Below, one piece after another: positions 8,004-37,380 of a DNA stretch of 64,000 nucleotides. Position numbers and translations under genes: made by a program. Positions within the stretch are counted from its first letter, which is position 1; every line of letters starts with the position of its first letter. Under the pieces are notes generated by a model that worked only from the letters and a program-made list of their open reading frames with translations, was not told the DNA's origin and made no database searches. The DNA comes from a virus, in IMG/VR virus record IMGVR_UViG_3300025617_000007, positions 64,001 through 128,000 of that record; one strand, 5' to 3'.

Positions 8004-8051
8004 ATATTGATAAATAGTTTGTTTATTGTTATATTTAATAAATATTTCACT

Positions 8052-15851: not shown

Positions 15852-16205
15852 TTAAATTATGTTTATGTATAAATTATCTTTAATCGGCGCAATTAACTCT
15901 CCCATTGAGTTCACTATATGAAACTCCCCGATAAACCGACCCTTTTTCTTGGTATCCCTCTTAGACCACTTATAAAAAATGTAATATTCTTTCGGCGCAT
16001 CAGGATTTTGTTGTATCTTTTCTGTGATATATGCGTTGTTCATTAATATTTTAGGTATCCCATTACTTTCATCCTTCATAGTAAAACGAATGGTTGCAGT
16101 ATCTAAGTCGGCATCAAAAATTTTATTAGAGTTTGTTCTTCCGTCTTTTACTACCTGCATCTTTAAGATGGGTAACTCACTATTTTGTTTAATAAAAAAT
16201 TCCAT
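15852..16205 (-). CDS. Stand-alone BppU-like baseplate adaptor domain
   Basis: Clear paralog of the first ~115 aa of the upstream 1515-aa protein. Confidence 0.55.
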   Translation of the reverse strand: MEFFIKQNSELPILKMQVVKDGRTNSNKIFDADLDTATIRFTMKDESNGIPKILMNNAYITEKIQQNPDAPKEYYIFYKWSKRDTKKKGRFIGEFHIVNSMGELIAPIKDNLYINII

Positions 16206-16219
16206 ATTCTATAAATACA

Positions 16220-19200
16220 TTATATTAAAGTAACAGTAACATATCCATTACCTGTGTTATAAGTTCCTAAATTGGTGATTGAATTACCACCAAAAGTTGA
16301 ACTGTTATTATATTGCCCATCCGTTGTTGATACATTAGTAAGTCCTGATATTAAATAAGAACCAGCACCTCCACCACCGTCAGAACGAGGATTACCGTTT
16401 CTATATGAACCTCCACCACCGGAGTATCCACCACCACCTCCACCACAGATAGGAGCACCTCCACCAGCACCACCAAATCCACCATCGGAGCCTTGTGTAT
16501 GAGTGGAAGAACGTGCCCCTCCACTTAAACCTGCAGAATATGTTCTACCAGCCCCTCCGTCTTGAGAAGTTGCAGCGCCACCTGAAGTACCATCACCATT
16601 TTCACCGTCAGTTAAGAAACCTGCACCTGAGCCACTATCATATGTGTTTGTAGATACAATTGTACCGTTTGTGTGTGATTCTCCACCATTACCGTTAGTA
16701 CCACCAGGGGCACCAAATACTGATGTAGTACCGCTAATATTAGTAACAGCATCATTACCATTATAAAGTGTTCCTGACTCGGAACCATTGTATGCTCCAT
16801 CACCACCACCTCCACCAGCTACGATTAATGGTGTACCACTTAACACAACAAATGAACCACCACCCCCACCAGCTCCGTTATATTGTGTAGCATTAACCAC
16901 TGCAGCCCCTTGTTGTCCGACAATAATCTCAACAACATCACCTCTATTGAAAGAATATCTACCTTTCATTATTACACCTCTACCACCTGTGGATGAAGAA
17001 GGGTATGTGACTGAGGAGGCTTGTGCACCTGCCACTTCAAACTCGTAAGTTCCTGTTTGTGGAACCGTCCATTCTTGGTAACCATTTGTTGTTACATCAA
17101 GGTAACTAGTGTTTTGTGTCCACGATTCACCACTATAAGCACTTTGTACTTGGGCTAACGTTGGACCTGTTCTACCTACTAAACTTGCGGACGTAAATGT
17201 AAACGAACTAAATGAATATAGGTTAGTTGGTGTAGTCGATGGTGTTGGTGTTATTGATGGAGTAACGCTATTTGACGGAGTAATACTTGGAGTTATTGTT
17301 GCTGTAGGTGTAATTGACGGTGTTACTGATGGAGTAGCGCTACTTGTAGGTGTTGGGGTTATAGGTGATGATGACGATGAAGGTGTAACGGTAGTTGTTA
17401 CCGATGGAGTTGGTGTTGGTGTTATACTTGGACATGTTATAGTTTCAACACTAATATAAACAATGTCACCAATCACCCATTGTGTTGATGCCGATTGAAC
17501 TAACTGTATTTGATTATTACCATCACCTCTAAAGTAATATCCCGTTCCTTCAGTACCTCCTGTCCATCCTCCGTATGGTAAACCTGCGCCTCCGACATCC
17601 TCTAACGTTCCGTCATATATCGCGGTACTACCATTTTGAGAAATCGTCAAACGAACACAATTACCCACAAAAGACGAATAGTAAGAATCTCTATCTACAC
17701 CATTTTCATCGATTGCATTCCAATATATTCCATCCATCTGAGGACCATCATTGAATGAGTTTGGATTAGTAGAGCCACTAGATACGCCACCGTTACCATT
17801 ACTAATAATTGTATTACCTGAAGTTGGAACCTGATATGGTGTTGATACTAAATTATAACCATAACCTGTTGTCGGTACTGGCGATGGTGTAACTGATGGT
17901 GTAATTGTTGGAGTAACACTACTTGTTGGAGTGATAGTAGGAGTTACTGATGGTGTAATCGTTGGTGTTGGTGTGATTGAACTTGTCGGTGTTAATGAAG
18001 ATGTCGGAGTAATAGATGGGGTAACGGTAACTGATGGTGTTACACTTACAGATGATGTAGGTGTTACAGTATTTGTTGGTGTAACTGAAACGGTAGGAGT
18101 TACTGATGGAGTTACACTTACTGAACCACTTGGAGTAATTGATGGTGTAGGTGTTTCTGTAGACCTCGGAGTTGCAGACGGTGTTGACGTTGGTAAAGGA
18201 GATATTCCCGGTTGTGCACTCGTATCAAAACAGAACAAGTTTTGTTGGTGACAATTTACTGGTGAGACACTAACAGTTCCCGAAACGTAACTTACCCCCA
18301 CAATCCAATAATCTCCAGGAGAGGCGTTGGTAAAACTGTTTACAGTATACGTGGCAATTTGATTACCTAATTTCACATCTAGTGAGTTACCTGTTGTTAA
18401 TGGGAATAAATTATTAATGTCATATCCACTACATAATATATCTGACAAATACCACTCAGTAATCGATGACGGAGTTGCACTATTTGCGTATGCAACACCT
18501 GTTGCTGACGAACTAGGAACTGCTCCCGTTCCGTACCAGTTATAAGGAATACAAATCTCAGAGGACTGAGGTTCCGTTGGTGACGGACTTACCGTTAACG
18601 TAGGTGTTGGAGTTGGTGTTTGTGTTTGTGTTGGAGTTGGTGTTTGTGTTTGAGTTTGTGTTGGTGTTGGACTAACCTCAGGACATGGATAATCATTAAT
18701 ACAAGTTGCACAATCACTGTAAGTTTCTTTTACTGCAAGTGGACCACCAGCAGGTGGATTGATTAAAGTTACCTGGTGACACTGATTATTATGAATCAAG
18801 AAATCTCCGACAATGATACTGTCATAAGTTGTTAAAACTACATCTGCACCGTCACAACATCTTGTTGTTGCCGCTCTTGTTAAAACTGATGGTGTTGATG
18901 TTGGTGTAGGTGTTGGTGTTTCTGTCTGTGTTTGTGTCATCGTTGGAGTTGGTGTTTGTGTGTTGGTTTGAGTCACCGTAGCGGTAGGAGTTGGAGTAGG
19001 ACAATTACATGTTCCTGATGGTGTTGCAGAGGCGTTACATATAGGTGCATTATTATCTTCAACATATATAGCACATATGACAACAGTATCAAGTTGATTG
19101 ACAACTACTGTGGATATGTTATCATCACAATCGGTAACAATAAATTCGGCAGGTGAACCACACGTACCATCACCACCATATAGAGTCCATGTATCACAAC

Positions 19201-20767
19201 ATGGCGTAGTTGATGTTGGGGTAACTGACAAAGTTGGTGTAACTGATGGAGTTAATGTTACCGATGAGGTAGGAGTTATACTATTAGTTGGTGTTATTGA
19301 CGGAGTAGGTGTGACAGATGCAGTAGGAGTAATTGAAGGTGTAGATGTAGCACTACTAGTTGGTGTGATAGATGTTGTAGGAGTAATTGAAGGTGTAGGT
19401 GTAATGGTCGGTGTTGGAGTAATACTTGAAGTCGTTGTTATACTCGGAGTACTAGTTACTGTCGGAGTAATAGATACACTTGGAGTAATAGTAGGTGTAG
19501 GAGTAACCGACAAAGCAGGACTAACACTTACTGTTGGTGTTATTGACGATGTAGGAGTAACACTTGAAGTTGGCGTAATAGATGGAGTAACACTTATCGA
19601 TGGTGTTACGGTTTGTGTTGGAGTTACCGATGGTGTTGGTGTTACAGGTAATGATGAAGGAGTAACGGTAGTTGTTACCGATGGTGTTGGTGTCGGTGTC
19701 TGAGTTTGTGTTAATGTTGGAGTATTACTTATACCCGCAGTTGGGCTCTGAGTTATCGTTTGAGTCGGTGTCATTGTCACAGTTGCCGTTTGTGTCAATG
19801 TCGGAGTGTGAGTTGGTGTAATAGATGAAGTTGGTGTGTTAGTCGGTGTTAACGATATTGTTGGAGTGTTAGATGTTGTTACGCTTGGTGTTGGCGTATA
19901 TGTAGGTGTTACACTCGGAGTTGGCGTGTTAGTTGGTGTAACTGATGGTGTTGGTGTAGTTGACGGTGTTGTACTTACACCTGCGGTTACTGACGGAGTA
20001 GGTGTTACCGTAACACTTGGTGTGACAGACGGTGTTGAAGTAATTGTTATACTTGGAGTCGGCGTAATAGTTACTGAAGGTGTAATTGAAGAACTAGGCG
20101 TTATACTTGGTGATGGAGTAATTGAAACACTTGGAGTAACTGAAGAAGTAGGTGTAATAGTTACTGAAGGTGTAACTGAAGATGTGGGTGTGATAGACAC
20201 AATAGGAGTTACTGAAATGGTTGGGGTAATCGAACTGGTCGGAGTGATAGATGGTGTAGGGGTAGTAGAAGTGGTTGGTGTTATCGTAACTGAAGGAGTA
20301 ATAGAAATAGTTGGTGTTATCGTTACTGAAGGGGTAGGTCTAGGCGTTTCAGATGGTAATACAATAGCGTCTTGACCCCTATTTGGTTTACAACATAAGT
20401 CAGGAATACTTATTGAGTCCCTAACATTTATCACTAACTTTTCTCTTAAAGGTAATGTTATCTCACCCTGATTATTTGTGATTTTAAATTCGCCAATATA
20501 ACCGCCAGGTTTTCTTGTTTCGTGTGATGATAGTTGATAATAAACATAATAGTCAATATCAGGACTATCTCCGTTAGATTCCTTTACCATTATTTGTGCG
20601 GCTTTGTTCATAACATAATATCGATTAGTTTCCTCATCTCTCATTGAAAAAGTAATGGTTGAGTTATTTGTTAATTCATCGAATTCGCGAAAATCGACTC
20701 TGCCGTCCTTTATAATTTGGACCTTAATTATTGGTAATGTGCTATTTTTTCTAATAAAAAATTCCAT
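16220..20767 (-). CDS. 1515-aa mucin-like tail fibre/virion appendage protein
   Basis: BppU-like N-terminus, long Thr/Pro/Ser tracts, Cys-rich modules, and a C-terminal glycine-rich domain (WTVPQTGTYEFEVAGAQ...GGGGGS). Confidence 0.7.
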   Translation of the reverse strand: MEFFIRKNSTLPIIKVQIIKDGRVDFREFDELTNNSTITFSMRDEETNRYYVMNKAAQIMVKESNGDSPDIDYYVYYQLSSHETRKPGGYIGEFKITNNQGEITLPLREKLVINVRDSISIPDLCCKPNRGQDAIVLPSETPRPTPSVTITPTISITPSVTITPTTSTTPTPSITPTSSITPTISVTPIVSITPTSSVTPSVTITPTSSVTPSVSITPSPSITPSSSITPSVTITPTPSITITSTPSVTPSVTVTPTPSVTAGVSTTPSTTPTPSVTPTNTPTPSVTPTYTPTPSVTTSNTPTISLTPTNTPTSSITPTHTPTLTQTATVTMTPTQTITQSPTAGISNTPTLTQTQTPTPTPSVTTTVTPSSLPVTPTPSVTPTQTVTPSISVTPSITPTSSVTPTSSITPTVSVSPALSVTPTPTITPSVSITPTVTSTPSITTTSSITPTPTITPTPSITPTTSITPTSSATSTPSITPTASVTPTPSITPTNSITPTSSVTLTPSVTPTLSVTPTSTTPCCDTWTLYGGDGTCGSPAEFIVTDCDDNISTVVVNQLDTVVICAIYVEDNNAPICNASATPSGTCNCPTPTPTATVTQTNTQTPTPTMTQTQTETPTPTPTSTPSVLTRAATTRCCDGADVVLTTYDSIIVGDFLIHNNQCHQVTLINPPAGGPLAVKETYSDCATCINDYPCPEVSPTPTQTQTQTPTPTQTQTPTPTPTLTVSPSPTEPQSSEICIPYNWYGTGAVPSSSATGVAYANSATPSSITEWYLSDILCSGYDINNLFPLTTGNSLDVKLGNQIATYTVNSFTNASPGDYWIVGVSYVSGTVSVSPVNCHQQNLFCFDTSAQPGISPLPTSTPSATPRSTETPTPSITPSGSVSVTPSVTPTVSVTPTNTVTPTSSVSVTPSVTVTPSITPTSSLTPTSSITPTPTITPSVTPTITPTSSVTPTITPSVTPSPVPTTGYGYNLVSTPYQVPTSGNTIISNGNGGVSSGSTNPNSFNDGPQMDGIYWNAIDENGVDRDSYYSSFVGNCVRLTISQNGSTAIYDGTLEDVGGAGLPYGGWTGGTEGTGYYFRGDGNNQIQLVQSASTQWVIGDIVYISVETITCPSITPTPTPSVTTTVTPSSSSSPITPTPTSSATPSVTPSITPTATITPSITPSNSVTPSITPTPSTTPTNLYSFSSFTFTSASLVGRTGPTLAQVQSAYSGESWTQNTSYLDVTTNGYQEWTVPQTGTYEFEVAGAQASSVTYPSSSTGGRGVIMKGRYSFNRGDVVEIIVGQQGAAVVNATQYNGAGGGGGSFVVLSGTPLIVAGGGGGDGAYNGSESGTLYNGNDAVTNISGTTSVFGAPGGTNGNGGESHTNGTIVSTNTYDSGSGAGFLTDGENGDGTSGGAATSQDGGAGRTYSAGLSGGARSSTHTQGSDGGFGGAGGGAPICGGGGGGYSGGGGSYRNGNPRSDGGGGAGSYLISGLTNVSTTDGQYNNSSTFGGNSITNLGTYNTGNGYVTVTLI
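19205..20360 (-). repeat. Largest degenerate TPT(P/S)S(I/V) coding repeat tract, about 385 aa
   Basis: Protein-level repeats with varied codons. Further tracts lie at about 17220-17440, 17870-18200, 18590-18670 and 18890-19000. Confidence 0.85.
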
Positions 20768-20769
20768 AG

Positions 20770-22851
20770 TTAATTTGATTCATTAATTATATTAAAGTTA
20801 GGGTCGCAATCAGATTCAGTAATGTTAAATCCAAAATCACAAGTGATTTCATTAGTTACAAAATCAAAATCACATGCAGGTTTTGCCACTTCAAAATTAA
20901 AGAAACATCCTAACAAACAAGGGTAACAATTTGAACACCAAAAATCGTATAGGTCAAACTTATCTTTTAATTGTCTAAAATTATGTTGTAATTGAGGAGT
21001 ACCTAATGGTTCGGTATACATTCTAAATTGTGATATACCACCCATAAATGTTCCTCCAAAATTAGGTTCTAATAATATGTCCGTAGTTAACCCAGAAAGT
21101 GAAGTCCCTGATAATGTTTCATTTGACATAGATTCCGGGTCCTGAATGTATAATCCGTCAGTTGATGTACATCCACTAAACATTAAACTTTCTCTAAGAC
21201 CTTGTGTACCTCCACCCCAACTAATGTTAAATGGTACACCTAATTGTTTTTCTTTTTGAGTATTTAATTCACGAGGTATAATCTCTTCAAAATCTTCAAT
21301 TACCATAAAAAGATATCCGTTAACATATAACTTCAATAGTCCCTTTCGTTTATCTTTTTCTCTTAACCATTTTCTATTAAGTTCGGTTATGTTTGTTAAT
21401 TTTTCTTTAGTCGAACCGGGATGTGTTTGTGGAGGTACAATAAGATTTGGTGATGCACCGTTAATTGATGATGGGTATAGTAACTCTCGTATATCTCCTA
21501 AACCTCCCCAATTAATTAAATCACAATCCTCTAAACTTTCATATCTCTCAAATACTGTGGATATCATAACCCATCTTTCTTCAGTATTTGCGGTGTAACA
21601 AATTAAACTTTCATAGTCACAACTATCATATATCCCTTTAACGGAACATATTTCGTTAACACAATATCCTGATGAATATGTTGTACCTGTAACGTCACAA
21701 TTTACTTCAGTGACACAGTCACCAGTTAATTTTATATATTTAACACATAGTTTAGGATTCTTAGGGTCACCATCTAACCTAATTGACATCGCATTAGAAA
21801 ATACATCTTTACCTGGGTCGACAGGTGGATTTACAACCTCAGAATCATACCCACAATTAATTCCTATATTATGCTGAACAGTTGTTGCTGTTGTGGGGAA
21901 AACATTAAAACAATCTGAATTGGTTACTCCTGTATTGGAACATGCACAAGTTTTAATACAAGTTGTTAAACCTGACGTTACCCTTTTATAATTCCACTCA
22001 CTAACACTACCAACAATATCAACATCAAAATTACATTTAAACGTCTCTATTGATTGGACATCTCCTGATGCTGGATGGTAATATTTATTTTCTGCCCTTG
22101 TACCGAAGAAAAAGAATGTACCGGAGTTTTCAGGATAAACATCATTTAAGTAAACTTCAGAAGGTTGTATTTCAAACTCTTCTCTTTGTCTAGGTTTTAT
22201 TAATGTTTCCATTGTCCAACCCTTATTTACTCTTTCAGGAAATACTTCGTAATCGTACCCATATAACTTATAAAACCCTTGATAAAATCCACCATATAAT
22301 TCATTATAATAACCTTTATATTGGTCATCTTTAGAAACTATATTATACACCGTTTTAGTGTTTCCTGAAAATCTATGATTTGGCCAATTTGCATATGAGG
22401 TGACAGGATGTAATTTTAACCTTCTATCGTAATAATAGGGATTAAACTTTTCAAAATCATTTATACCCATAGTAAAAGTTAATGATTGTCCCGACATTTT
22501 ATCATATAATCCATTATCTGTACCTGTTAACCCTATATCACATAAAGTAGTTGCGGTTTCACAATTTAAATCTTCATTGTTCGGATTATAGTAATTTTTT
22601 GATATTAGAGTGTTACCTGAATAATTTACGTTCCATAATAATCTTAGTTTTTGATTAGATAATGATGAATTTAAATCGATACTAACAGGTAATCGATTAC
22701 CGTCATTTTCGGCAATAATATTATTTGAGAAAACGACTTCTTCATCGTAATCTTTTTCATCAGACGCTAATGTAAGGTCAAAATTACTACTATAATCTAA
22801 CCTAATGTCGTACCTATTGAAATAATAATTATTGATATTCTGACTTGGCAT
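20770..22851 (-). CDS. Cys-rich virion structural protein (LamG/ConA-like C-terminal features)
   Basis: 'LYVNGYL', 'NISWGGG', 'GGISQFRMYTEPL' pattern and C-terminal C-x-F-x-F repeats; late motif at 22865-22872. Confidence 0.5.
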   Translation of the reverse strand: MPSQNINNYYFNRYDIRLDYSSNFDLTLASDEKDYDEEVVFSNNIIAENDGNRLPVSIDLNSSLSNQKLRLLWNVNYSGNTLISKNYYNPNNEDLNCETATTLCDIGLTGTDNGLYDKMSGQSLTFTMGINDFEKFNPYYYDRRLKLHPVTSYANWPNHRFSGNTKTVYNIVSKDDQYKGYYNELYGGFYQGFYKLYGYDYEVFPERVNKGWTMETLIKPRQREEFEIQPSEVYLNDVYPENSGTFFFFGTRAENKYYHPASGDVQSIETFKCNFDVDIVGSVSEWNYKRVTSGLTTCIKTCACSNTGVTNSDCFNVFPTTATTVQHNIGINCGYDSEVVNPPVDPGKDVFSNAMSIRLDGDPKNPKLCVKYIKLTGDCVTEVNCDVTGTTYSSGYCVNEICSVKGIYDSCDYESLICYTANTEERWVMISTVFERYESLEDCDLINWGGLGDIRELLYPSSINGASPNLIVPPQTHPGSTKEKLTNITELNRKWLREKDKRKGLLKLYVNGYLFMVIEDFEEIIPRELNTQKEKQLGVPFNISWGGGTQGLRESLMFSGCTSTDGLYIQDPESMSNETLSGTSLSGLTTDILLEPNFGGTFMGGISQFRMYTEPLGTPQLQHNFRQLKDKFDLYDFWCSNCYPCLLGCFFNFEVAKPACDFDFVTNEITCDFGFNITESDCDPNFNIINESN

Positions 22852-22864
22852 ATTGGTTTTTATA

Positions 22865-22892
22865 GATAAATACTTTGTTTGTAGTATTTATA
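22865..22892. promoter_or_regulatory. Back-to-back putative late promoters
   Basis: TATTTATC on the minus strand (22865-22872) and TATTTATA on the plus strand (22885-22892), each 13-14 nt from a divergent ATG. Confidence 0.65.
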
Positions 22893-22906
22893 GTAAAAAA
22901 CAAACT

Positions 22907-23647
22907 ATGAAGTCATATCTTTATAAAACAGAAGAAGGTGCGAAGAATGCCTCCAAAGAGTTAGGATGTAAAGGTTTTCACAAACACAAAAGAAAAACTT
23001 TTATGCCTTGCTCAACACATAAGGAGTTTTTAGATAAAAGTAAATCTCAAAAACCCGAAGGTGAAATAGATGAATTAATTGATTATGATGGTACAATGTT
23101 AAATTCAAAAGTACCTATTCTCGACCCTCACGTAACTGCTAAAGGTGATGATACTATGGATAAAACGGTTGCAATGGCTCGTATCACCCAAGACCCACTA
23201 ACTAGAGGTTATAGAGTGTACTATGGAGAATCAGTAGTAAGAGAAGAAGATATGGAAGACGCTTTTGGTTTTGAGGAAACTAAGTTTATGGATGCCGAAG
23301 AAACTGTAGATTACTTCATGAGTGAATTAGGTTTTGACGAAATTGATGCTGAAGGTAGGGCAGAGGAAATGGGAAAAGACCCTAAATTAGATGATAGCTC
23401 TCAATATAAAAGTAAGAAAAACTTTGTAATGAAAGGTCGTTTAACGGAAAAAGGTAAAGTATTAAGTAAAGAAGAAATATTAAAAATGGGTGAAGACTCT
23501 TTAGTTGGTAAAACAGATAGTAGAGATATTAAAATGACAAAAGAAATTTCACCAATACTTAAAAGAAATATTAAAGCACTTAAGAAATTGGCAGTTATGG
23601 ACGGAGTATCTACCAACGAATTAATTAAGATGTTAAAAAATGAATAA
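22907..23647 (+). CDS. Hypothetical protein with an N-terminal Cys/His module
   Basis: Start probably 22907 (MKSYLYKTEEG); motif GCKGFHKH...MPCSTH. Confidence 0.55.
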   Translation: MKSYLYKTEEGAKNASKELGCKGFHKHKRKTFMPCSTHKEFLDKSKSQKPEGEIDELIDYDGTMLNSKVPILDPHVTAKGDDTMDKTVAMARITQDPLTRGYRVYYGESVVREEDMEDAFGFEETKFMDAEETVDYFMSELGFDEIDAEGRAEEMGKDPKLDDSSQYKSKKNFVMKGRLTEKGKVLSKEEILKMGEDSLVGKTDSRDIKMTKEISPILKRNIKALKKLAVMDGVSTNELIKMLKNE

Positions 23648-25438: not shown

Positions 25439-26644
25439 ATGGCAAAGATTAAAATATTAGTATTACCCTCAGACAGGACTGGGGTTGGTAAGTTTCGTTC
25501 CGTTGAACCACATATCTTCTTACAAAACAAATATCCTGAAGACTTTCATGTAGATATAGACTACGAACCAAAAATTGATGACGATAATTATTGGAAGAAT
25601 TACGACATCGTTCATTTCCACAGAACAATAACAAAAGATTATGATAGTACTCCCGCACTTTTAGAGAAACTAAATAAATGGGGAATTACTACTATTGGTG
25701 ATATTGATGATTATTGGTTACCTTCTCGTGAACATCCTGCACATGCAATGATAATGAATAGTAAACTTCATTTAAAGATTGTTAAAAATTTAAAATCCGC
25801 ACAATACGTTACTACCACAACCCCATTGTTTGCTCAGGAAATCAAAAAAATTAATAAAAATGTAATTGTATTACCAAATGCGATTAACCCTAATGAACCT
25901 CAATTTCAAGAAAAAACAAAACCTTCAGATAAGTTACGATTCGGATGGTTAGGTGGTTCATCACACTTACATGATTTAAAATTATTGGGTGGTACTTTTG
26001 GACTTCTTTCATCATTAAAAGACCAATACGACTTATATCTATGTGGGTTTGACACTAGAGGTACTGTTACCGAAATAGATAATAGAACAGGTCAACAAAG
26101 ACAAAGACCTATTAAACCTGAGGAAACTGTATGGGCACAATACGAACAAATATTTACAAGTAATTATAAGTTAATTGATGAAGACTACAAAAAGTTTCTT
26201 TTAAATTATACACAGGGACAATACCCTAATGAGAAATTTTATCATAGAGTTTGGACCGCACCTGTAACTTCATATGCTAAGAATTATTCTAAGTTTGATG
26301 TATCGTTAGCACCAATCAAGAACCACTTATTCAATAGAATGAAATCACAACTTAAAGTGATTGAGGCAGGTTTTTATAAAAAAGCAATTATAGCTTCAAA
26401 TGTCGGACCTTACACGATAGATTTGACACATTCATTGAAAAATGGTAACTTTGTTGATGGAAATGCTTTATTGGTAAACGAAACAAGAAATCACGGAGAT
26501 TGGTCTAAGTTTATGAAAAAACTCATAAACAACCCTTCATGGGCTGAAGATTTGGGTGAAAGATTATATGAGACCGTTAAAGATACTTATGACTTAAATA
26601 ACGTAACCGATACAAGAGCACAATTTTATAAATCCTTAATATAA
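25439..26644 (+). CDS. Glycosyltransferase, GT-B (GT4-like)
   Basis: DIDDYW, 'VLPNAI', GWLGG, 'FN.MKSQLKVIEAG', IIASNV. Confidence 0.85.
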   Translation: MAKIKILVLPSDRTGVGKFRSVEPHIFLQNKYPEDFHVDIDYEPKIDDDNYWKNYDIVHFHRTITKDYDSTPALLEKLNKWGITTIGDIDDYWLPSREHPAHAMIMNSKLHLKIVKNLKSAQYVTTTTPLFAQEIKKINKNVIVLPNAINPNEPQFQEKTKPSDKLRFGWLGGSSHLHDLKLLGGTFGLLSSLKDQYDLYLCGFDTRGTVTEIDNRTGQQRQRPIKPEETVWAQYEQIFTSNYKLIDEDYKKFLLNYTQGQYPNEKFYHRVWTAPVTSYAKNYSKFDVSLAPIKNHLFNRMKSQLKVIEAGFYKKAIIASNVGPYTIDLTHSLKNGNFVDGNALLVNETRNHGDWSKFMKKLINNPSWAEDLGERLYETVKDTYDLNNVTDTRAQFYKSLI

Positions 26645-26649
26645 TATAT

Positions 26650-27351: not shown

Positions 27352-27354
27352 AAT

Positions 27355-27954: not shown

Positions 27955-28333
27955 TACAAGTCCTGTATTAACAGACGAAAGAAAGAATTATTTGATTGAC
28001 ATTGATGGGACCATCACCGATGATGTACCCAACGAAGAACCTGAAAGAATGGTAACCTGTTTACCTTATAAAGGGTCCGTTGAGTTGATTAATGATTGGT
28101 ATAGTGAGGGTCACGTTATAACTTTTTTTACTTCAAGAACTGAAGAACATAGAAGAGTTACCGAAGAGTGGTTACAGAAACATGGATTCTTTTACCATAA
28201 TTTGTTAATGAACAAACCGAGAGGTGGAAATTATCATTGGATTGATAATCATATCGTAAGAGCAACACGATATAATGGTAAATGGACACCACTTACCGAA
28301 AAAGAAACTAAAATACAAGTATTTGACGATTAA
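27929..28333 (+). CDS. Small HAD-family phosphatase
   Basis: IDIDGTI, FFTSR, LLMNKP, WIDN. Confidence 0.75.
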   Translation: MDLVQLETNTSPVLTDERKNYLIDIDGTITDDVPNEEPERMVTCLPYKGSVELINDWYSEGHVITFFTSRTEEHRRVTEEWLQKHGFFYHNLLMNKPRGGNYHWIDNHIVRATRYNGKWTPLTEKETKIQVFDD

Positions 28334-30516
28334 TGATAACAATAGGATATAGCACAAAGAAAATAGACTCTGAATTTAGAGAGTATATCGAGAAATCATG
28401 TGGATTAAAAAACGTTGAGGTAATCCCATTTGAAAACCCTGGCACTCATTCATTGACCGAAGCATATAATATCATTCTTGAGAAATCGAGCAATGATATT
28501 GTTGTTTTATGTCATGATGACATCTACTTCGAGAAAAATAATTGGGGTAACAAAATATTAAAACATTTTAAAAGAAATCCTGAATACGGTATTATTGGTG
28601 CTGCTGGTTCCAAATATATGCCGAGAACGGGGATGTGGTGGGAAGTTCAATCCGAAATGATTGGTATTGTTAATCACGAACACGAAGGTAAAAAATGGAC
28701 ATCAAAATATAGTGAATCCAAAGGAAATAAATTAGACGATACTGTAATTGTTGACGGTCTTTTTATGGTGGTTAATAAACCAAATCTAAAGGTAAATTTT
28801 AATGAAGATGTTAAAGGGTTTCACTTTTACGAAGTAGATTTTTGTTTTAGGAACTTTTTAGAAGGTGTTAGAGTAGGTGTTTTTTATGACGTTAGGATTA
28901 CTCATAAATCTATCGGTATGACTAATGAACAGTGGGAGAAAAACCGGCAACAATTTGCTAAAACTTATAAAGATAATCTTCCTGTTTTATTACCCACATC
29001 ATTTACAAAAAAAGATGTTAAAAAGAATGAGCCATTAGTAACATTAGCAATGCCAATTTACAATTACGCAAAAAGATTAAACCCAACCCTACATTCTGTT
29101 TTTAATCAAGATTACACCAATTTTGAAATTACATTGGTGAATGATGGTTCTGATGATGAATATTGCTTAATGAAGTTGGATTCTTTAAAAGACCATGACT
29201 CAATTCGAGTTATACATAAAGAAAATACAGGAGTGTCTGATACTCGTAACCGAGCGGTTAAAGAGGGTAAAGGGGAATATATTTTACCTCTTGATGCTGA
29301 TGATATGATATTGCCAGGTTATCTTAAAACCGCAGTAAACATTATTAAGAACAATCCAAAGATTAGTCCCGTATATTGTGATACAATACACATTGGTGAG
29401 ATGCAAGGATTGGAAAAAAGACCTGAGTGGAGTAAAGACCAGCTTATGAGAGGTCCTTTCATCGTCAATAGTTCAATGTACTCTCGTGAATCATATGAGT
29501 ATGTGGGTGGGTACGATACCACACTTCAAGGTTGGGAGGACTATGATTTTTGGATTAGAATGTCAAAAGAAGGATATGAAGGTAAACATATACCAAAAGG
29601 GTTATTTGTTTATTTCCATCATGAAAAAGATGGTTCAGTATCGACTAAAGCAAATGAAAATCAACAAAAACTATACTCTGCAATTATGAATAAAAACTTT
29701 AACACCAAAAATACTTATACTTTTAATAATAGAGTAATAACACCTGATAATACAATGAATTGGGGTGATTTAGTACCATTTAATATAATTGATAATATAT
29801 TTGAACATAATATTAAAAAAGAAGATGTTTTTAATGTTAAACAACCTAACGGTAACTATAACATATATTCAACTGGTAGTGTTATGTTATTCACAAAACC
29901 AAACAGTATTGTTTGGGGGACAGGATGTATCGATAAGGGGATGATAGGTCAAAAACCGTCCAAAGTTTACGCAGTTAGAGGACCTTTAACTCGTGAAGAA
30001 CTTATTAAAAAAGGTATTGAATGTCCTGAAGTATATGGTGACCCGGCATTATTATATCCTCGTTTCTATAATCCTAAAGTTGAGAAGAAATATAAGTGGG
30101 GAATCATACCACACTATATAGAGTTTGAATCGTCAAGAGATAGGGAAGTCCTTAAAAACTTAGAAGAACAAGGAGTTAGAATCATTGATATCTGTTCAGG
30201 AGAAAAAGAGTTTATTAATGAGTTATTAGAAGTTGAAAATGTTCTATCATCTAGTCTACATGGATTAATAATGGCCGACGCGTACGGGATACCGAATGCG
30301 AGAGTTAACATATCAAATAAACTAATTGGTGGACATTTTAAATTTAAAGATTACTATTTATCTATTAATAGAAAAATAGATTTAGGTCTACAATTAAGTA
30401 AACACACTAAAATTAAAGATATTGAAAAACTATATTTTAATACCTCAATTGACTTTGATGGTGATAAATTAATTAACTCGTCCCCTTGGACTCAAAAAAA
30501 AATAACTTATGTATAA
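28333..30516 (+). CDS. Tri-domain glycan enzyme: GT-A + GT2 + polysaccharide pyruvyltransferase
   Basis: Domain 1 LCHDD/VDGLF; domain 2 VNDGS...LDADD...EDYDFW; domain 3 NWGD...GSV...VWGTG...AVRGPLT...GDPA...SSSLHGLIMADAYGIP. Confidence 0.8.
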   Translation: MITIGYSTKKIDSEFREYIEKSCGLKNVEVIPFENPGTHSLTEAYNIILEKSSNDIVVLCHDDIYFEKNNWGNKILKHFKRNPEYGIIGAAGSKYMPRTGMWWEVQSEMIGIVNHEHEGKKWTSKYSESKGNKLDDTVIVDGLFMVVNKPNLKVNFNEDVKGFHFYEVDFCFRNFLEGVRVGVFYDVRITHKSIGMTNEQWEKNRQQFAKTYKDNLPVLLPTSFTKKDVKKNEPLVTLAMPIYNYAKRLNPTLHSVFNQDYTNFEITLVNDGSDDEYCLMKLDSLKDHDSIRVIHKENTGVSDTRNRAVKEGKGEYILPLDADDMILPGYLKTAVNIIKNNPKISPVYCDTIHIGEMQGLEKRPEWSKDQLMRGPFIVNSSMYSRESYEYVGGYDTTLQGWEDYDFWIRMSKEGYEGKHIPKGLFVYFHHEKDGSVSTKANENQQKLYSAIMNKNFNTKNTYTFNNRVITPDNTMNWGDLVPFNIIDNIFEHNIKKEDVFNVKQPNGNYNIYSTGSVMLFTKPNSIVWGTGCIDKGMIGQKPSKVYAVRGPLTREELIKKGIECPEVYGDPALLYPRFYNPKVEKKYKWGIIPHYIEFESSRDREVLKNLEEQGVRIIDICSGEKEFINELLEVENVLSSSLHGLIMADAYGIPNARVNISNKLIGGHFKFKDYYLSINRKIDLGLQLSKHTKIKDIEKLYFNTSIDFDGDKLINSSPWTQKKITYV

Positions 30517-31366
30517 TTTTAATTACCTCTTAAACAAGATAAAAAACTCTGAGTTCATTAAAGAACCTTTTGAACATTTGGATATTCGAAACTTTTTAAG
30601 TGACGAACACTTATCCATTTTAAAAAATAATAAACAAATACATTTTGAAGAGTGCTCTACTCAAGAGCAATTAAGGTCTAACCTAAACAGTAATGGGTTT
30701 ACTCCGACACCATTTCCTGGATGTACAACAAATGAAAACTTATATTTTTCACTACTTAAAGAAAATAAATTAAATCAAATACAAACTGAAGGGGATTCAG
30801 AAGGTGTCGGTATAGCATATGTTTTGAATAAGGTCAATGATGAATTTGTAAAATCTCTATTGAGATTTTTAAATGGTGAAGAGTTTCACAATACACTTAA
30901 AGAAAAGTTTAATATCACCGAACAGACTAGGGTAACCACGAAAATTCAAAAATATTTAACAGGTTATGAAATATCTCCACATCCTGATATTCGACAAAAA
31001 TCTTTAACATATCTATTAAATATCAATAAAGACAATCATAGTGAAAATGACCAAATACATACCGATTTATTATCATTAAAAGAAGATTATAAATTTATTT
31101 ATGATTATTGGGAGAAAAACCCAAGAGAAAATCGTGCATGGGTATCATGGAAATGGTGTGATATAAAAAAGACTATGAGGGAAAATAATAGTATTGTAAT
31201 TTTCAAACCTTCTAACTATTCGTTACACGCTATCAAGTTAAACTATGACCATAAGAAATATCAGAGAACACAAATATATGGTAACCTTATGTTTACTAAA
31301 CCAAAACAATATACACCACAAAAGATTGATAAATTTATTAAGATGATTAATGAAAGTAAAAAATAA
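30509..31366 (+). CDS. 2-oxoglutarate/Fe(II)-dependent oxygenase
   Basis: ISPHPD (HxD), LTYLLNIN, distal SLHAI and a C-terminal Arg (QRT). Confidence 0.65.
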   Translation: MYNFNYLLNKIKNSEFIKEPFEHLDIRNFLSDEHLSILKNNKQIHFEECSTQEQLRSNLNSNGFTPTPFPGCTTNENLYFSLLKENKLNQIQTEGDSEGVGIAYVLNKVNDEFVKSLLRFLNGEEFHNTLKEKFNITEQTRVTTKIQKYLTGYEISPHPDIRQKSLTYLLNINKDNHSENDQIHTDLLSLKEDYKFIYDYWEKNPRENRAWVSWKWCDIKKTMRENNSIVIFKPSNYSLHAIKLNYDHKKYQRTQIYGNLMFTKPKQYTPQKIDKFIKMINESKK

Positions 31367-31943
31367 ACACATATATTTAATACACATAAATAAATGTGGA
31401 GGTACGTCAATGAAAGGTATTATGTCCAATAAAGACAATGTTACAATACCTAAAAATGATGATATTATTGAACTTAAGAAAAAAGATAAGTGGAAAAACT
31501 CAATTAAAGTTACAATAACACGTAATCCTTATCATCGGATACTTTCATTACATTCAATGTTAATAAGAGATGGAGTTGGAATCACTTTACAGGAGGTTAT
31601 TGATATAATTACTGATGATAGTATTAAATATAAAGTTAAAAATGGTGGACTAAATAAAGGAACTAAACAACATGTCAAAAGACACGGTTTACCAATGACT
31701 CACAAGCATTATGGTGTGGTTAATGAAGACTTGTCCTTGGATGTTGATTATGTATTTAAACTTGAGGAATTACATGACAAGTGGGATGAGTTTAAGGAAT
31801 TAACTGATATTCATTCAGAAATAGTGATACGTAATAAGTCAAATAACAAAAACGATATTACTATATTCAGTGGAGAACAAATTAAAAAAATTAACGAACA
31901 CTATTATAATGATTTTATTTGTTTTAAATATGAAATGATATGA
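31350..31943 (+). CDS. Carbohydrate sulfotransferase (Sulfotransfer_2-like)
   Basis: 5'-PSB loop HINKCGGTS and 3'-PB RNPYHRILS. Confidence 0.8.
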   Translation: MKVKNKHIYLIHINKCGGTSMKGIMSNKDNVTIPKNDDIIELKKKDKWKNSIKVTITRNPYHRILSLHSMLIRDGVGITLQEVIDIITDDSIKYKVKNGGLNKGTKQHVKRHGLPMTHKHYGVVNEDLSLDVDYVFKLEELHDKWDEFKELTDIHSEIVIRNKSNNKNDITIFSGEQIKKINEHYYNDFICFKYEMI

Positions 31944-32836
31944 GATTAATAACAGGGAACGGATTAGTTGGGTCAGCATTAGATGGTGACGTTAAAATAT
32001 CGTCAGGGCATTTTGATTTAAGAAATACGGAGAGCGTTAAGTCAATGTTTAAATTTTATCAACCAACAGAGGTAATCCACACAGCAGCAAAAGTAGGTGG
32101 ATTGGGTTCAAACATGAAATATAAAGGAGAATACTTTTATGATAACATAATGATGAATACAAATGTCATCGAACAATCAAGACAATCGGGTGTTAAAAAA
32201 TTGGTGTCATTTTTATCCACATGTGTATTTCCTGATGATGTTGAATATCCCTTAACTGAAAAGAAAATACATTTAGGTGAACCTCACTTTTCAAACAACG
32301 CATATGCATATGCGAAAAGAATGGTAGATGTCCAAATCAGGGCATATCGAGAACAATATGGTTTAGAATATAAATCAGTTATACCAACAAACATATATGG
32401 ACCAAACGATAACTTTTCACTAACTCACGGACATGTCATGCCAATGTTAATACATAAAATGTATTTAGCTCAAAAAAACAACACCCCTTTTGAAGTTTGG
32501 GGTTCAGGTAAACCACTTAGAGAGTTTATTTATTCTAAAGATGTTGCAAAACTTACCGAATGGGTTATGAATAATTACGATGAAGATGAACCAATCATAC
32601 TATCCACTTCTCAAGAAATATCAATACGAGATTTAGTTGATTTATTAGTTCAAGAGTTTAACTTTAAAGGCGAAGTAATTTTTGATGGGTCAAAGCCTGA
32701 TGGTCAATTTAGAAAACCATCAGATAACTCAAAAATCAAAAACTACTTACCTGACTTTAAATTCACACCAATAGAGGAAGGTATAAAGGAAACGGTAAAT
32801 TGGTTTATTGAAAATTATGAAACAACAAGAAAATAA
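31940..32836 (+). CDS. fcl: GDP-L-fucose synthase
   Basis: HTAAKVGG, FLSTCVFP, YAYAK (YxxxK), PTNIYGPNDNF, WGSGKPLREF. Confidence 0.9.
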   Translation: MRLITGNGLVGSALDGDVKISSGHFDLRNTESVKSMFKFYQPTEVIHTAAKVGGLGSNMKYKGEYFYDNIMMNTNVIEQSRQSGVKKLVSFLSTCVFPDDVEYPLTEKKIHLGEPHFSNNAYAYAKRMVDVQIRAYREQYGLEYKSVIPTNIYGPNDNFSLTHGHVMPMLIHKMYLAQKNNTPFEVWGSGKPLREFIYSKDVAKLTEWVMNNYDEDEPIILSTSQEISIRDLVDLLVQEFNFKGEVIFDGSKPDGQFRKPSDNSKIKNYLPDFKFTPIEEGIKETVNWFIENYETTRK

Positions 32837-33815
32837 AGTTGCACTAATTACAGGTATTAACGGACAGGACGGTTCATATTTAACAGAATTTTTATTAGAA
32901 AAAGGATATGAAGTTTGGGGGACGATAAAAAGAAATTCTGTTTCTGAGAACCAAACAAATCGATTAGGTGAGACCTACTATAAAATTAAAGATAATTTGG
33001 AGTATGTGGATATGACCGACTTATCTTCACTTCTCAGGATTATTCAAAAATGTAAACCTAATGAGATATACAATCTAGCTGCACAATCACACGTAAGAAT
33101 ATCTTTTGACCAACCAATATATACCGCAAACGTCACAGGTATGGGTTCGTTGAATCTATTGGAGGCAGTTAAATTAATCGACCCAACCATTAAAATATAT
33201 CAAGCATCATCTTCTGAAATGTTTGGTAATAATATAGATGAGGACGGATATCAGCGAGAGACGACACCGATGGACCCAGTATCCCCATATGGATGTTCTA
33301 AGGTGTTTGCATATAACATTAGTAGAAATTATCGTAATTCATACGGTATGTTTATTTCAAACGGAATATTATTTAATCACGAATCCCCAAGACGAGGTAG
33401 TAACTTTGTAACTAATAAAGTTGTTAAAACTGCTGTGGAGATTAAGAAGGGTTTAAGGGACGATTTAGTATTAGGTAATATGGAAGCAACTAGAGACTGG
33501 GGACATGCTAAAGACTATGTTGAGGCTATGTGGTTAATTCTACAACAAGATGAACCTGACGATTACGTATGTTCTACAGGAATCTCACATTCAGTAAAAG
33601 ATTTAGTTACTTATGTTTTTAATAAGTTACATTTAGATATAGATAAACATGTTAAAACAAATAACAAATACTTTAGACCTGAAGAGTTAAAAGACTTAAA
33701 AGGTGATAGTAGTAAATTAAGGAGTAAAACAGGATGGGTACCTAACTATACTTTTGAGAGTATGTTAGATGAAATGATAGATTATTGGATGAAAAAATTG
33801 CCAAGCTTAATTTAA
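32808..33815 (+). CDS. gmd: GDP-mannose 4,6-dehydratase
   Basis: ALITGINGQDGSYL, YNLAAQSHV, YQASSSEMFG, NHESPRRG, RDWGHAKDYV. Confidence 0.95.
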   Translation: MKIMKQQENKVALITGINGQDGSYLTEFLLEKGYEVWGTIKRNSVSENQTNRLGETYYKIKDNLEYVDMTDLSSLLRIIQKCKPNEIYNLAAQSHVRISFDQPIYTANVTGMGSLNLLEAVKLIDPTIKIYQASSSEMFGNNIDEDGYQRETTPMDPVSPYGCSKVFAYNISRNYRNSYGMFISNGILFNHESPRRGSNFVTNKVVKTAVEIKKGLRDDLVLGNMEATRDWGHAKDYVEAMWLILQQDEPDDYVCSTGISHSVKDLVTYVFNKLHLDIDKHVKTNNKYFRPEELKDLKGDSSKLRSKTGWVPNYTFESMLDEMIDYWMKKLPSLI

Positions 33816-33828
33816 ATAAAAAAAATAC

Positions 33829-35500: not shown

Positions 35501-35503
35501 AAT

Positions 35504-36568: not shown

Positions 36569-36573
36569 GAATT

Positions 36574-37380
36574 ATGGAAGATAAATTAAATGTATCGGTT
36601 ATTTTACCGATTAACTCATCAAAAAACAAAAATTTTGAGACTTTTTTTGAAAGTTGTATCACTTCTATTCAAAACCAATCAACACCAATTAATGAAGTTG
36701 TAATAGTACATAGCGATGAAGAATCTTTAGTATCTATGTTAGATAACTATAATTTTAGTGGTCTAACAGTTAATAGAGTACTAAATAAAGGTGATGTTGA
36801 TTTCGCTACTCAAGTGAATTTGGGAGTTGAGAACGCAAAAAGTGATTGGATTTCAATTATTGAATTTGATGATGAATATGCCACTATATGGTTTAAAAAC
36901 GTTAAACGTTATATGGAGTCGTATCCTGAAATATCAGGTTTTTTACCGTTAGTTATTGATGTGGACGATAAAGGTGTTTTTGCAGGGTTCACCAATGAAG
37001 CAACCTTTGCCGCAAATATGAATACTGAAATTGGTTACTTAACTAATGAGGTGTTATTAAATTATCAAAACTTTCAAACTAGTGGTATTGTAATTAAAAA
37101 AGATACTTTTCAACAGTTTGGAGGTATTAAAAAATCTATGAAGCTAACATTCGTATATGAGTTCCTATTAAGATTAACATATAACTCAGTTGAGTTAATG
37201 ACAATCCCTCGAATAGGTTATAAACACATGAATATGAGAGAAGGTTCTATATTTTGGAACTACAAATTTGGAGAGAATAAGATAACTGAAGATGAGGTAG
37301 CTTTTTGGATTGACTCAGCAAAGAAAGAACACTTTTTTATTGAAAATAGGGACATAAATTATCAACCCGAAAATGTTTAA
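36574..37380 (+). CDS. Glycosyltransferase, GT-A (GT2-like)
   Basis: SVILP, 'FATQVNLGVENAKSDWISIIEFDDEY' (DxD-like). Confidence 0.7.
   Translation: MEDKLNVSVILPINSSKNKNFETFFESCITSIQNQSTPINEVVIVHSDEESLVSMLDNYNFSGLTVNRVLNKGDVDFATQVNLGVENAKSDWISIIEFDDEYATIWFKNVKRYMESYPEISGFLPLVIDVDDKGVFAGFTNEATFAANMNTEIGYLTNEVLLNYQNFQTSGIVIKKDTFQQFGGIKKSMKLTFVYEFLLRLTYNSVELMTIPRIGYKHMNMREGSIFWNYKFGENKITEDEVAFWIDSAKKEHFFIENRDINYQPENV

Follow-up and report, generated by a model that had tools for sequence, protein, structure and literature searches.

Architecture of a 1515-residue phage protein combining [Ser/Thr]-X tracts, variable modules and a predicted ALK/LTK-type terminal domain

Locus and tract architecture

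The analysed window is a 64,000-nucleotide stretch of a 138.6-kb viral record (G+C of the genome, 33%), and positions refer to this window unless otherwise indicated. Positions 16220-20767 of the minus strand form one uninterrupted reading frame of 1515 codons, and the opposite (plus) strand over the same interval is riddled with stops. The encoded protein has an unmodified mass of 154.4 kDa and contains 314 Thr, 207 Ser, 172 Pro and 136 Gly residues, and neither a signal peptide nor a membrane segment was predicted in it. Five tracts totalling 644 aa (42% of the protein) are interspersed with six globular modules, as listed in Table 1. The preliminary description had proposed about five tracts, the longest of about 385 aa, separating an N-terminal, two Cys-rich, two further and a Gly-rich C-terminal module; all of these were mapped, with a longest tract of 382 aa. 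Judged from its sequence, the protein is built as beads on a string, with a small anchor, five stalks, swappable binding-type modules and an ALK-like tip. Tract-type ORFs are rare in the record (3 of 216 ORFs).

Table 1 Features of the 1515-residue protein and its surroundings in the window.
Feature	Position	Strand	Residues	Remarks
Stand-alone anchor paralog P0003	15852..16205	(-)	117 aa	42% identity to aa 1-115 of the 1515-aa protein
C-terminal ALK/LTK-type TG domain (predicted)	16223..17209	(-)	aa 1187-1515	
Tract 5	17210..17434	(-)	aa 1112-1186	
Module D	17435..17875	(-)	aa 965-1111	
Tract 4	17876..18205	(-)	aa 855-964	One phase 95% Ser/Thr
Module C	18206..18571	(-)	aa 733-854	
Tract 3	18572..18670	(-)	aa 700-732	One phase 100% Ser/Thr
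Cys-rich module B	18671..18880	(-)	aa 630-699	
Tract 2	18881..19012	(-)	aa 586-629	Thr-X, X = Pro/Gln
Cys-rich module A	19013..19198	(-)	aa 524-585	
Tract 1	19199..20344	(-)	aa 142-523	382 aa, [Ser/Thr]-X alternation
N-terminal anchor domain	20345..20767	(-)	aa 1-141	
Cys-rich upstream gene P0002	20770..22851	(-)	693 aa	Syntenic in relatives
Promoter-like inverted repeat TATAAATAC-N10-GTATTTATC	22865..22892	(-)		13 nt before the P0002 ATG
Glycan genes	28333..33815	(+)		Five genes, part of the cluster named in the preliminary description
GT2 glycosyltransferase	36574..37380	(+)	268 aa	

The tracts are written as a strict dipeptide alternation of [Ser/Thr]-X, a feature that the preliminary description had missed, with X occurring in the order Pro>Val>Ile. 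The unbroken register covers 600 residues, which is far beyond chance, since 1000 shuffles within tracts averaged 19 residues and never exceeded 90. Its Ser/Thr phase comprises 210 Thr and 90 Ser, and its X phase includes 126 Pro, 51 Val, 42 Ile, 23 Ser and 15 Gln. Charged residues are nearly absent from the tracts (0 Lys, 2 Arg, 0 Asp, 3 Glu). Thr accounts for 31-43% and Pro for 20-27% of tract composition, while Ser makes up 19-23% of the three long tracts and 5-6% of the two short ones; purity dips slightly at aa 331-351 of tract 1. All five are long and Pro/Thr/Ser-dominated, as in mucin-type PTS sequences. Glycoside hydrolase Pro/Thr linkers and the polyproline-II stalks of bacterial adhesins likewise separate globular modules by extended, low-complexity Pro/Thr/Ser sequence, but the phage tracts differ in forming 42% of the protein, in reaching 382 aa, in placing Ser/Thr at every second position and in their frequent Val and Ile.

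Thr is encoded by all four of its codons and Ser by both codon families. Ten copies of TPSITP are written as nine distinct 18-mers, with a mean pairwise nucleotide identity of 0.65-0.79. The longest exact DNA repeat within the gene is 25 nt, and the arrays found by Tandem Repeats Finder are short and imperfect. The codon degeneracy noted earlier was thus borne out, and these data support upkeep of the repeats at the protein level.

The stop codon of P0002 lies 2 nt ahead of the 1515-codon frame, so the two genes are probably co-transcribed. No match to P0002 was found in Pfam, PHROG, PDB or cultured phages. Within the upstream region of P0002, TATAAATA is kept in 18 of 19 relatives though its flanks diverge, and TATTTATA shows an orientation bias toward gene starts, that of the tail tube gene among them. 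P0003 carries GTATTTATA 13 nt ahead of its ATG and is kept directly downstream of the anchor gene in the near clade, with a mean column identity of 86%. The promoter-like motif preceding P0002 and P0003 is also common to the tail tube and head-module genes. The slot order is conserved as 693-aa gene, anchor gene, 117-aa paralog and PolB; the 1515-aa gene adjoins PolB, in a region where replication and structural genes are mixed.

Anchor domain, exchangeable modules and C-terminal domain

The anchor domain was modelled by AF2 (pLDDT 74) as an Ig-like beta-sandwich with nine strands, and it closes with a conserved Cys-Cys pair, C125 and C126. No fewer than 411 relatives are known from viral contigs, which supports the earlier proposal of an N-terminal adaptor in the form of a conserved adaptor-type domain. 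No Pfam family was found for the domain, a search of 15 family members with the threshold relaxed to E<=10 gave no BppU_N hit, and a PDB sequence search with the family returned no match. Named fold matches in BFVD were minor tail, tailspike, baseplate and BppU-domain proteins (E about 1e-4, TM 0.45-0.55), the entries "BppU domain protein" (TM 0.47-0.52) and "baseplate component" both matching at E 3.5e-4. Fold matches in the PDB were non-discriminating (Z <=8.7), none scoring above antibodies; the N-domain of lactococcal phage TP901-1 ORF48 (3uh8_A, Z 7.4; 4v96_AA, Z 8.0) was level with many Ig domains.

The resemblance to BppU-type proteins such as ORF48 lies in the general plan, in which a small Ig-like sandwich at the N-terminus precedes distal binding modules that vary. 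The phage protein differs from them in its lack of a Pfam BppU_N match, in an anchor fold that scores no better than antibodies, and in carrying its cargo on hundreds of residues of [Ser/Thr]-X stalk where BppU has a coiled coil. The anchor, found here in a myovirus, is furthermore mostly a stand-alone protein: in most of 79 loci it is complete at 125-135 aa and ends at the Cys-Cys pair. These stand-alone forms include loci with 66-84% identity and the same synteny, the protein measuring 131-134 aa in close relatives. Because the anchor stands alone in the same slot of most relatives, the long extension was interpreted as an accessory add-on rather than an essential fibre, and comparison of these loci indicates that the tract-and-module extension is dispensable.

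The internal modules are exchanged between alleles. A copy of module A with 40% identity is present in the allele of relative L004, and a 69%-identical copy of module C lies within allele P0007 in another architecture. Module D is 97% identical to its copy in the L004 allele, whereas the anchor domains of the same pair are only 79% identical, which argues for a recent cassette exchange. No family match was found for Cys-rich modules A and B, and modules C and D had neither a Pfam match nor a usable Atlas lead. Anchor and tracts are common to the alleles while the cargo varies, consisting of Laminin_G_3, a reprolysin-like region, module C or the TG domain, the last of which is missing from many alleles.

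A profile of 28 homologs of the C-terminal domain, searched against the PDB, matched the human ALK and LTK ectodomains over ~280 residues at E 6e-30 to 6e-29. The AF2 model of the domain has a pLDDT of 94 and a pTM of 0.93, and its 20 best Foldseek hits comprise only ALK/LTK TG or GRD structures (E 4e-14, TM 0.57-0.70), to which the phage domain is 23-26% identical. The single sequence scores 19.1 bits against PF12810, under the Pfam cut-off of 24.5, and a precomputed PF12810 assignment is present on many of its homologs. The Gly runs are conserved, and metagenomes contain the family in very large numbers (3822 cluster representatives at E<=1e-3). Profile and predicted fold together identify the domain as a true ALK/LTK TG domain (TNF-like plus polyglycine; Pfam PF12810). 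Together with the concanavalin-like Laminin_G_3 of other alleles, this assignment supports the distal binding-type modules of the preliminary description. In animals the ligands of the ALK/LTK TG domain are ALKAL cytokines; unlike its animal counterparts, the phage TG domain is a terminal module without kinase or EGF parts.

A distal TG domain, and alleles that vary as receptor-binding proteins do, could also describe an essential primary receptor-binding tail fibre whose host-receptor adhesin is the TG domain, and T4-like adhesins do use polyglycine-rich tips, as cited for S16 gp38 (Dunne 2018, cited in PMC13243192). This reading is very improbable given that close relatives with the anchor conserved in sequence and synteny have no cargo, that the cargo is wholly different between alleles, many of which lack the TG domain, and that long flexible single-chain stalks contrast with rigid trimeric fibres. 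The term fibre, where it implied an essential tail fibre, is accordingly unlikely to apply.

Candidate glycosylation genes

The preliminary description had named the cluster at 25439-37380 as the candidate modifying machinery. Only part of this interval consists of glycan genes, which are limited to the two segments in Table 1; positions 25439-28333 code for a 401-aa ORF, a PolB-type exonuclease, a dUTPase and a HAD phosphatase, and PhoH is also located within the cluster. The five-gene segment begins with a 727-aa GT2+GT2+pyruvyl-transferase fusion, followed by a 285-aa ORF, and further encodes a sulfotransferase, a GDP-fucose-synthase-like epimerase and a GDP-mannose 4,6-dehydratase. The suggested co-occurrence of fibre genes and glycan cluster failed when relatives were compared: the cluster is at the same place in five extension-less close relatives (L005, L008, L011, L012 and L014), and its GDP-mannose dehydratase is missing from relative G017, which has a tract-rich form of 1076 aa. 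The cluster thus does not track the fibre, and involvement of 28333-37380 in modifying the protein is doubtful.

Two GT60 (PF11397) genes were identified outside the window, at genome positions 5774-7057 and 7044-8318, ~72 kb from the 1515-aa gene. They score 164 and 245 bits (cut-off 21; E 1e-47 and 2e-72), and no membrane segment or signal peptide was predicted in either product. The pair are better and more specific candidate initiators than the window cluster, and the earlier claim of phage-encoded modifying machinery stands to the extent that a predicted route to O-glycosylation exists in the genome, though not through the cluster it named. All three tract proteins of the genome co-reside with the two GT60 genes. 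In relatives, small tract proteins are followed by GT60, other transferases and the anchor gene, in that order. A tract ORF lies within 10 kb at 50 of 80 GT60 loci, and 44 of 96 tract ORFs near GT60 start 0-4 kb upstream of it, these loci being drawn from related phages and hence non-independent events. GT60 is present on 21 of the 40 records examined from relatives, the near-clade contigs being fragmentary, and on all three of those that are at least 90% complete. It also occurs in relatives with a tract-free anchor and is consequently not specific for the 1515-aa protein.

Protist GT60 systems include Dictyostelium Gnt2 and T. cruzi TcOGNT-2, with Tc-mucins and gp72 as acceptors. The heavily glycosylated domain of T. 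cruzi gp72, PTVTPTP...TPTVTP, is of the same alternating type as the phage tracts (PMC3630849). The phage resembles protist mucin-type O-GlcNAc systems in combining PF11397 enzymes with Thr-rich, acceptor-like tracts of gp72-type T-P/T-V alternation (PMC3630849, PMC3769586). In contrast to the protist enzymes, those predicted for the phage have no membrane anchor and would act in the bacterial cytoplasm, and the phage tracts are far longer and strictly dipeptide-periodic.

Glycosylation of the stalks by GT60 is a tentative proposal with slightly less than even confidence. The same architecture could instead carry bare stalks, as intrinsically extended polyproline-II or PT-type linkers; the targets of the glycan genes, GT60 included, would then be different ones, for instance other proteins of the phage, polymers of the host envelope or DNA-unrelated acceptors. 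Sugar-free PX-type repeats of bacterial adhesins form extended stalks (PMC13243192), extension-less relatives keep the window cluster, and tract-free anchors co-occur with GT60. Bare stalks are nevertheless judged unlikely. One phase is 100% Ser/Thr across 600 residues, which exceeds the need of a spacer, since Pro/Ala/Gly/Glu linkers would suffice; tract ORFs lie immediately upstream of GT60 in many contigs; three tract proteins and two GT60 genes share one genome; and the acceptors known for GT60 are similar tracts rich in Thr (PMC3769586, PMC3630849).

Proposed function

The protein is interpreted, with confidence evenly balanced for the reading as a whole, as an accessory surface "tentacle" of modular build, belonging to a jumbo T4-like phage. 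The Ig-like N-terminal domain would plug it into the virion, likeliest at the tail or baseplate, in the style of a BppU-type N-domain. The five uncharged stalks would serve as extended, trypsin-proof spacers with a summed length of roughly 160-220 nm, at 0.25-0.34 nm per residue; protease resistance is likewise a prediction. The Cys-rich modules, modules C and D and the distal TG domain would act as interchangeable ligand-binding heads that give reversible attachment to cells, capsules or particles a wider capture radius, which is the putative adhesion function of the protein. The two soluble GT60 homologs of polypeptide alpha-GlcNAc-transferases would probably use the roughly 300 in-register stalk hydroxyls as acceptors. 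Because neither the enzymes nor the acceptor protein has a signal peptide or membrane segment, they would encounter each other in the host cytoplasm, ahead of assembly, and further glycan genes of the phage may extend the stalk sugars or decorate them.

Attachment to the virion is considered more likely than not. A soluble or cell-associated product freed at lysis, acting as a decoy, as an aggregation or biofilm-binding factor, or as a coat of the infected cell or debris, was considered improbable. It would suit the dispensable extension and the adjoining PolB and other replication genes, and no homolog was found in cultured phages with a virion proteome. Against it, signal peptide and membrane segment are absent, the conserved N-terminal module with variable cargo follows the usual logic of virion-attached adaptors, named matches among viral folds come from tail and baseplate proteins, and the tail tube and head-module genes carry the promoter-like motif too.

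T4 Hoc offers a parallel for an accessory tentacle, being a dispensable, Ig-containing, outward-reaching adhesin that may raise surface encounters. Hoc binds the capsid via its C-terminus and has no mucin-like stalk, in which it differs from the protein as proposed here. A precedent for phage-encoded virion glycosylation is cited for mycobacteriophages (Che8 and relatives; Freeman et al. 2023, cited in PMC11256854), whose glycosyltransferases were proposed or shown to decorate their own structural proteins; for the present phage a comparable link is proposed. The mycobacteriophages differ in enzyme families and hosts, and the acceptors named in that account are capsid and tail-tube proteins rather than mucin-like stalks.

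Short poly-Thr tails end some of the stand-alone anchors located beside GT60. These tails resemble the peptide acceptor of the T. cruzi enzyme, KPPTTTTTTTTKPP (PMC3769586).

The extended protein and its genome

The protein under study is encoded by a single intact ORF of 1515 codons, and the plus-strand reading of the same stretch is riddled with stops. A frame artefact was rejected because 4.5 kb stays open in an AT-rich genome. The unmodified protein has a mass of 154.4 kDa, and no signal peptide or membrane segment was found in it or in the GT60 enzymes (a candidate polypeptide GlcNAc-transferase family, PF11397) encoded by the same genome. The source record is one viral contig of 138,593 bp, of which the window comprises bases 64001-128000, and carries genes for a gp23-type major head protein, portal, large terminase, tail sheath, tail tube and a family-B DNA polymerase (PolB). 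The nearest capsid relatives are those of a Microcystis phage and Flavobacterium phages, at ~43% identity. CheckV estimates, which place a relative of 293,850 bp at 100% completeness and the 138.6-kb record at 46%, indicate that the record is a fragment of a jumbo genome of ~290 kb; absences from it are therefore weak evidence. The host of these jumbo T4-like phages carrying tract proteins is probably a member of the Bacteroidota. A second tract protein of the genome, 1838 aa long, contains SprB repeats (PF13573), a repeat of Bacteroidota gliding adhesins, which gives a host hint.

Five tracts were identified at residues 142-523, 586-629, 700-732, 855-964 and 1112-1186, the longest of 382 aa; together they account for 42% of the protein (644 residues). 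The preliminary description had counted about five tracts and called them TPTPS(I/V)-type; the order is stricter, with Ser or Thr at every second residue (210 T, 90 S) and only occasional one-residue phase slips. The alternate position is occupied mainly by P (126), V (51), I (42), S (23) and Q (15). Residues in [S/T]-X runs numbered 600, against a mean of 19 and a maximum of 90 in 1000 within-tract shuffles, and charged residues are nearly excluded (0 Lys, 2 Arg, 0 Asp, 3 Glu). Identical tract hexapeptides are encoded by 18-mers that are nearly all different, and the longest exact DNA repeat in the gene is 25 nt; selection for the pattern thus acts on the protein, in line with what the preliminary description had inferred. 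Recent slippage expansion was rejected because the DNA repeats are short and imperfect, as are the only arrays reported by Tandem Repeats Finder. With 0.25-0.34 nm allowed for each residue, the combined length of the tracts would come to ~160-220 nm.

Since the whole protein had no match in Pfam, its modules were scanned one by one. Matches to phrog_15511, phrog_22713 and phrog_7388 were obtained, all without known function, and the ESM Atlas gave no usable lead for the internal modules C (733-854) and D (965-1111). Paralogy among the internal modules was rejected because they showed no BLAST matches to one another. The C-terminal domain was identified as a TG domain, the TNF-like plus glycine-rich domain of ALK and LTK. 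A profile of 28 homologs matched the human ALK and LTK ectodomains over ~280 residues (E 6e-30), and an AF2 model (pLDDT 94) matched the LTK/ALK TG domains with E 4e-14 and TM 0.6-0.7. In metagenomes the TG family is very large: it has 3822 cluster representatives, which range from 300 to 5000 aa in protein length and in many cases carry PF12810. The domain is a predicted ligand-binding module, known mainly as part of cytokine receptors; in this phage protein it forms the tip. Polyglycine-rich tips are also known from T4-like adhesins (Dunne 2018, as relayed in PMC13243192), although their fold is different.

Features of the locus and of the wider genome (window numbering unless marked genome)
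Feature	Coordinates	Strand	Evidence or remark
Extended anchor gene	16220-20767	-	intact ORF
Anchor domain, residues 1-141	20345-20767	-	
Conserved Cys-Cys pair	20390-20395	-	
117-aa anchor paralog (P0003)	15852-16205		
Promoter-like motif TATTTATA before P0003	16210-16218	-	
693-aa Cys-rich gene (P0002)	20770-22851	-	
Inverted repeat upstream of P0002	22865-22892	-	TATTTATA motif and TATAAATAC
DUF3721 gene	22853-23647	+	PF12518, E 2e-10
Unassigned 401-aa ORF, PolB-type exonuclease, dUTPase, HAD phosphatase	25439-28333		
GT2+GT2+pyruvyl-transferase fusion, unassigned ORF, sulfotransferase, GDP-fucose-synthase-like epimerase, GDP-mannose 4,6-dehydratase	28333-33815		
PhoH	between 33815 and 36574		
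GT2	36574-37380		
GT60 (PF11397) tandem pair	genome 5774-7057 and 7044-8318 (L001)	-	E 1e-47 and 2e-72
714-aa tract protein, tract ~430 aa	genome 18476-20620 (L002:476-2620)	-	same [S/T]-X tracts
1838-aa tract protein with SprB repeats	genome 20688-26204 (L002:2688-8204)	-	same [S/T]-X tracts

A conserved anchor with an optional extension

The anchor domain is 42% identical to the adjoining downstream stand-alone paralog. Relatives of the anchor were detected on at least 411 IMG/VR contigs; most related contigs are fragmentary and the anchor fold is generic, which are among the chief weaknesses of the account given here. The gene order 693-aa gene, anchor gene, 117-aa paralog, PolB is kept across 79 loci. 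In most of these, including relatives with 66-84% identity, the anchor gene encodes only 125-135 aa and terminates at a conserved Cys-Cys pair. Stand-alone anchors at nine loci (L005, L008, L010-L012, L014, L019, L027 and L043) end at this pair or within ~9 residues of it, and in extended forms the tract begins ~15 residues past it. The extension is therefore an optional add-on, which makes an essential fibre unlikely. The observation of the preliminary description is confirmed and refined, and its interpretation is supported in part: the modular stalk-and-heads architecture was retained, whereas the likely glycosylation initiators lie elsewhere than in the gene cluster it had named as candidate modifying machinery.

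The same N-terminal domain occurs in proteins of 348-1289 aa, each continuing into [S/T]-X tracts. The cargo varies among them: some have Laminin_G_3 lectin-like domains, and others a reprolysin-like region, module C or the Gly-rich end described above. One allele (an anchor-bearing relative) shares 97% identity over module D against 79% over the anchor, and another shares 87% over the Gly-rich end against 57% over the anchor. Modules thus move between alleles.

An AF2 model of the anchor showed an Ig-like sandwich (pLDDT 74). Its matches in the PDB were weak and generic: phage baseplate chains, the N-domain of TP901-1 BppU among them, reached Z 7.4-8.7, about the same as antibodies. Against predicted viral structures, 69 matches were found at E<=1e-3, the named ones being minor tail, tailspike, baseplate and 'BppU domain' proteins. 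The anchor matched no Pfam family, and neither it nor the 693-aa neighbor had a match by tblastn against 50,697 cultured-phage records or by PDB sequence search. We read the modeled anchor as a BppU-like attachment domain whose membership of the family is unproven.

Complex prediction for the anchor and the 117-aa paralog gave a score of 0.47, against 0.02 for the best control, with contact agreement between runs of at least 61% and partner pLDDT of at least 77. Of 80 solved complexes 58 pass the mark used, only 7 of them with scores of 0.60 or below; 2 of 110 mismatched pairs also pass, both with such scores. The prediction is a weak lead that the two may pair. Mean column identity is 86% for the paralog vs 67% for the anchor, the paralog being much more conserved.

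Candidate glycosylation of the tracts

The preliminary description had proposed the cluster at window 25439-37380 as the candidate modifying machinery, an assignment that is not supported in that form. The content of the cluster is mixed, and near relatives keep it in the same place whether their anchor is extended or bare. Its GDP-mannose 4,6-dehydratase gene is present in two bare-anchor records (G003, G006) and absent from G017, a record with a 1076-aa tract-rich form. Retention of the fibre with loss of the glycan cluster, which had been said to speak against the proposal, is thus seen in part.

The likely initiators are the GT60 genes outside the window, which are better candidates and are preferred here over the neighboring cluster. 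FkbM-methyltransferase/HtrL/GT2 and GT2 genes adjoin the GT60 pair in the same operon, and the 714- and 1838-aa tract proteins, also outside the window, lie 10-18 kb upstream of the pair. Of 40 records from relatives, 21 carry GT60, among them all three that are at least 90% complete. The order in a distant clade is small tract proteins, GT60, further transferases (GT9-like, HtrL-like), anchor gene and PolB; some bare anchors beside GT60 (L025, L028, L035) terminate in short poly-Thr tails. GT60 relatives occur on at least 582 viral contigs. In the best 80 of these loci, a tract ORF lies within 10 kb in 50, and 44 of 96 such ORFs begin 0-4 kb upstream of GT60; the background, from one complete relative, is 4 tract ORFs in 294 kb. 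Since the GT60 loci are kin to one another, this adjacency is conserved linkage and not independent replication. Co-occurrence by record of GT60 and tract DNA (pattern TP[S/T]-[V/I]-TP) was not decisive, as the contigs are mostly fragmentary and tracts of other types escape the pattern. No prolyl-hydroxylase-type 2OG oxygenase (PF13640), a route to Hyp-linked GlcNAc, was found in this 46%-complete record.

Known GT60 enzymes initiate mucin-type O-GlcNAc on Thr-rich tracts (PMC3769586), and T. cruzi gp72 has a heavily glycosylated domain of alternating PTVTPTP... sequence (PMC3630849). Phage self-glycosylation has a precedent in mycobacteriophage (Freeman 2023, as relayed in PMC11256854). Literature searches returned no relevant paper on GT60 in connection with phages and nothing relevant on mucin-like phage fibres. 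Glycosylation of the tracts is plausible. We tentatively advance, as a possibility we would sooner doubt than accept, a phage-run cytoplasmic mucin-type O-glycosylation of [Ser/Thr]-X stalks that yields glycosylated 'phage mucin' tentacles of 100-200 nm with exchangeable heads. In the bacterial cytoplasm, alpha-GlcNAc would be placed on the periodic stalks as the first sugar by soluble GT60 enzymes, further phage transferases (GT2, pyruvyl-, sulfo-, with GDP-fucose supply) would lengthen the sugars, and the finished tentacles would display exchangeable binding heads such as the ALK-type TG domain.

The kinds of component involved are already known, namely adaptor-plus-cargo phage proteins, PT linkers, phage self-glycosylation and TG domains. 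If the proposal is true, it would describe a viral equivalent of mucin biosynthesis in eukaryotes and a virion appendage of a new class. Were the stalks glycosylated, a bacterial virus would produce mucin-like glycoproteins using enzymes otherwise studied in protists, with a simple acceptor code of Ser/Thr at every second residue. If the sugars are lacking, the locus still shows how a small conserved, putative virion adaptor becomes a very long cassette-swapping adhesin; this matters for the host range of abundant uncultured aquatic phages and for their encounter rates, and the tract protein is a natural scaffold for binding-domain display.

The upstream gene and a promoter-like motif

The anchor gene begins 2 nt past the stop of the 693-aa gene P0002, which is preceded by TATAAATAC-N10-GTATTTATC, an arrangement kept in 18 of 19 relatives although the flanks diverge. 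The T4 late promoter TATAAATA was rejected as an overall signal (16 matches vs 13.7 expected, not enriched); the oriented motif is its complement TATTTATA, often seen as GTATTTATA/C. Across the whole record, 18 of 33 occurrences of TATTTATA lie 12-45 nt upstream of an ORF, vs 6 of 33 for its complement. The motif precedes the tail tube gene, several head-module ORFs, an SOD fusion, P0002, P0003 and the 714-aa tract protein, and was not found before the PolB, helicase, dUTPase or transferase genes of the same genome. This distribution would fit a structural or late expression class.

P0002 itself, which is kept upstream of the anchor gene, had no match in Pfam, PHROGs, the PDB or cultured phages. 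Its distant-clade homologs carry short tracts and are positioned before small tract proteins and GT60. The DUF3721 gene diverges from P0002, the two starts being only a few bases apart, and the inverted-repeat promoter-like region is common to both genes.
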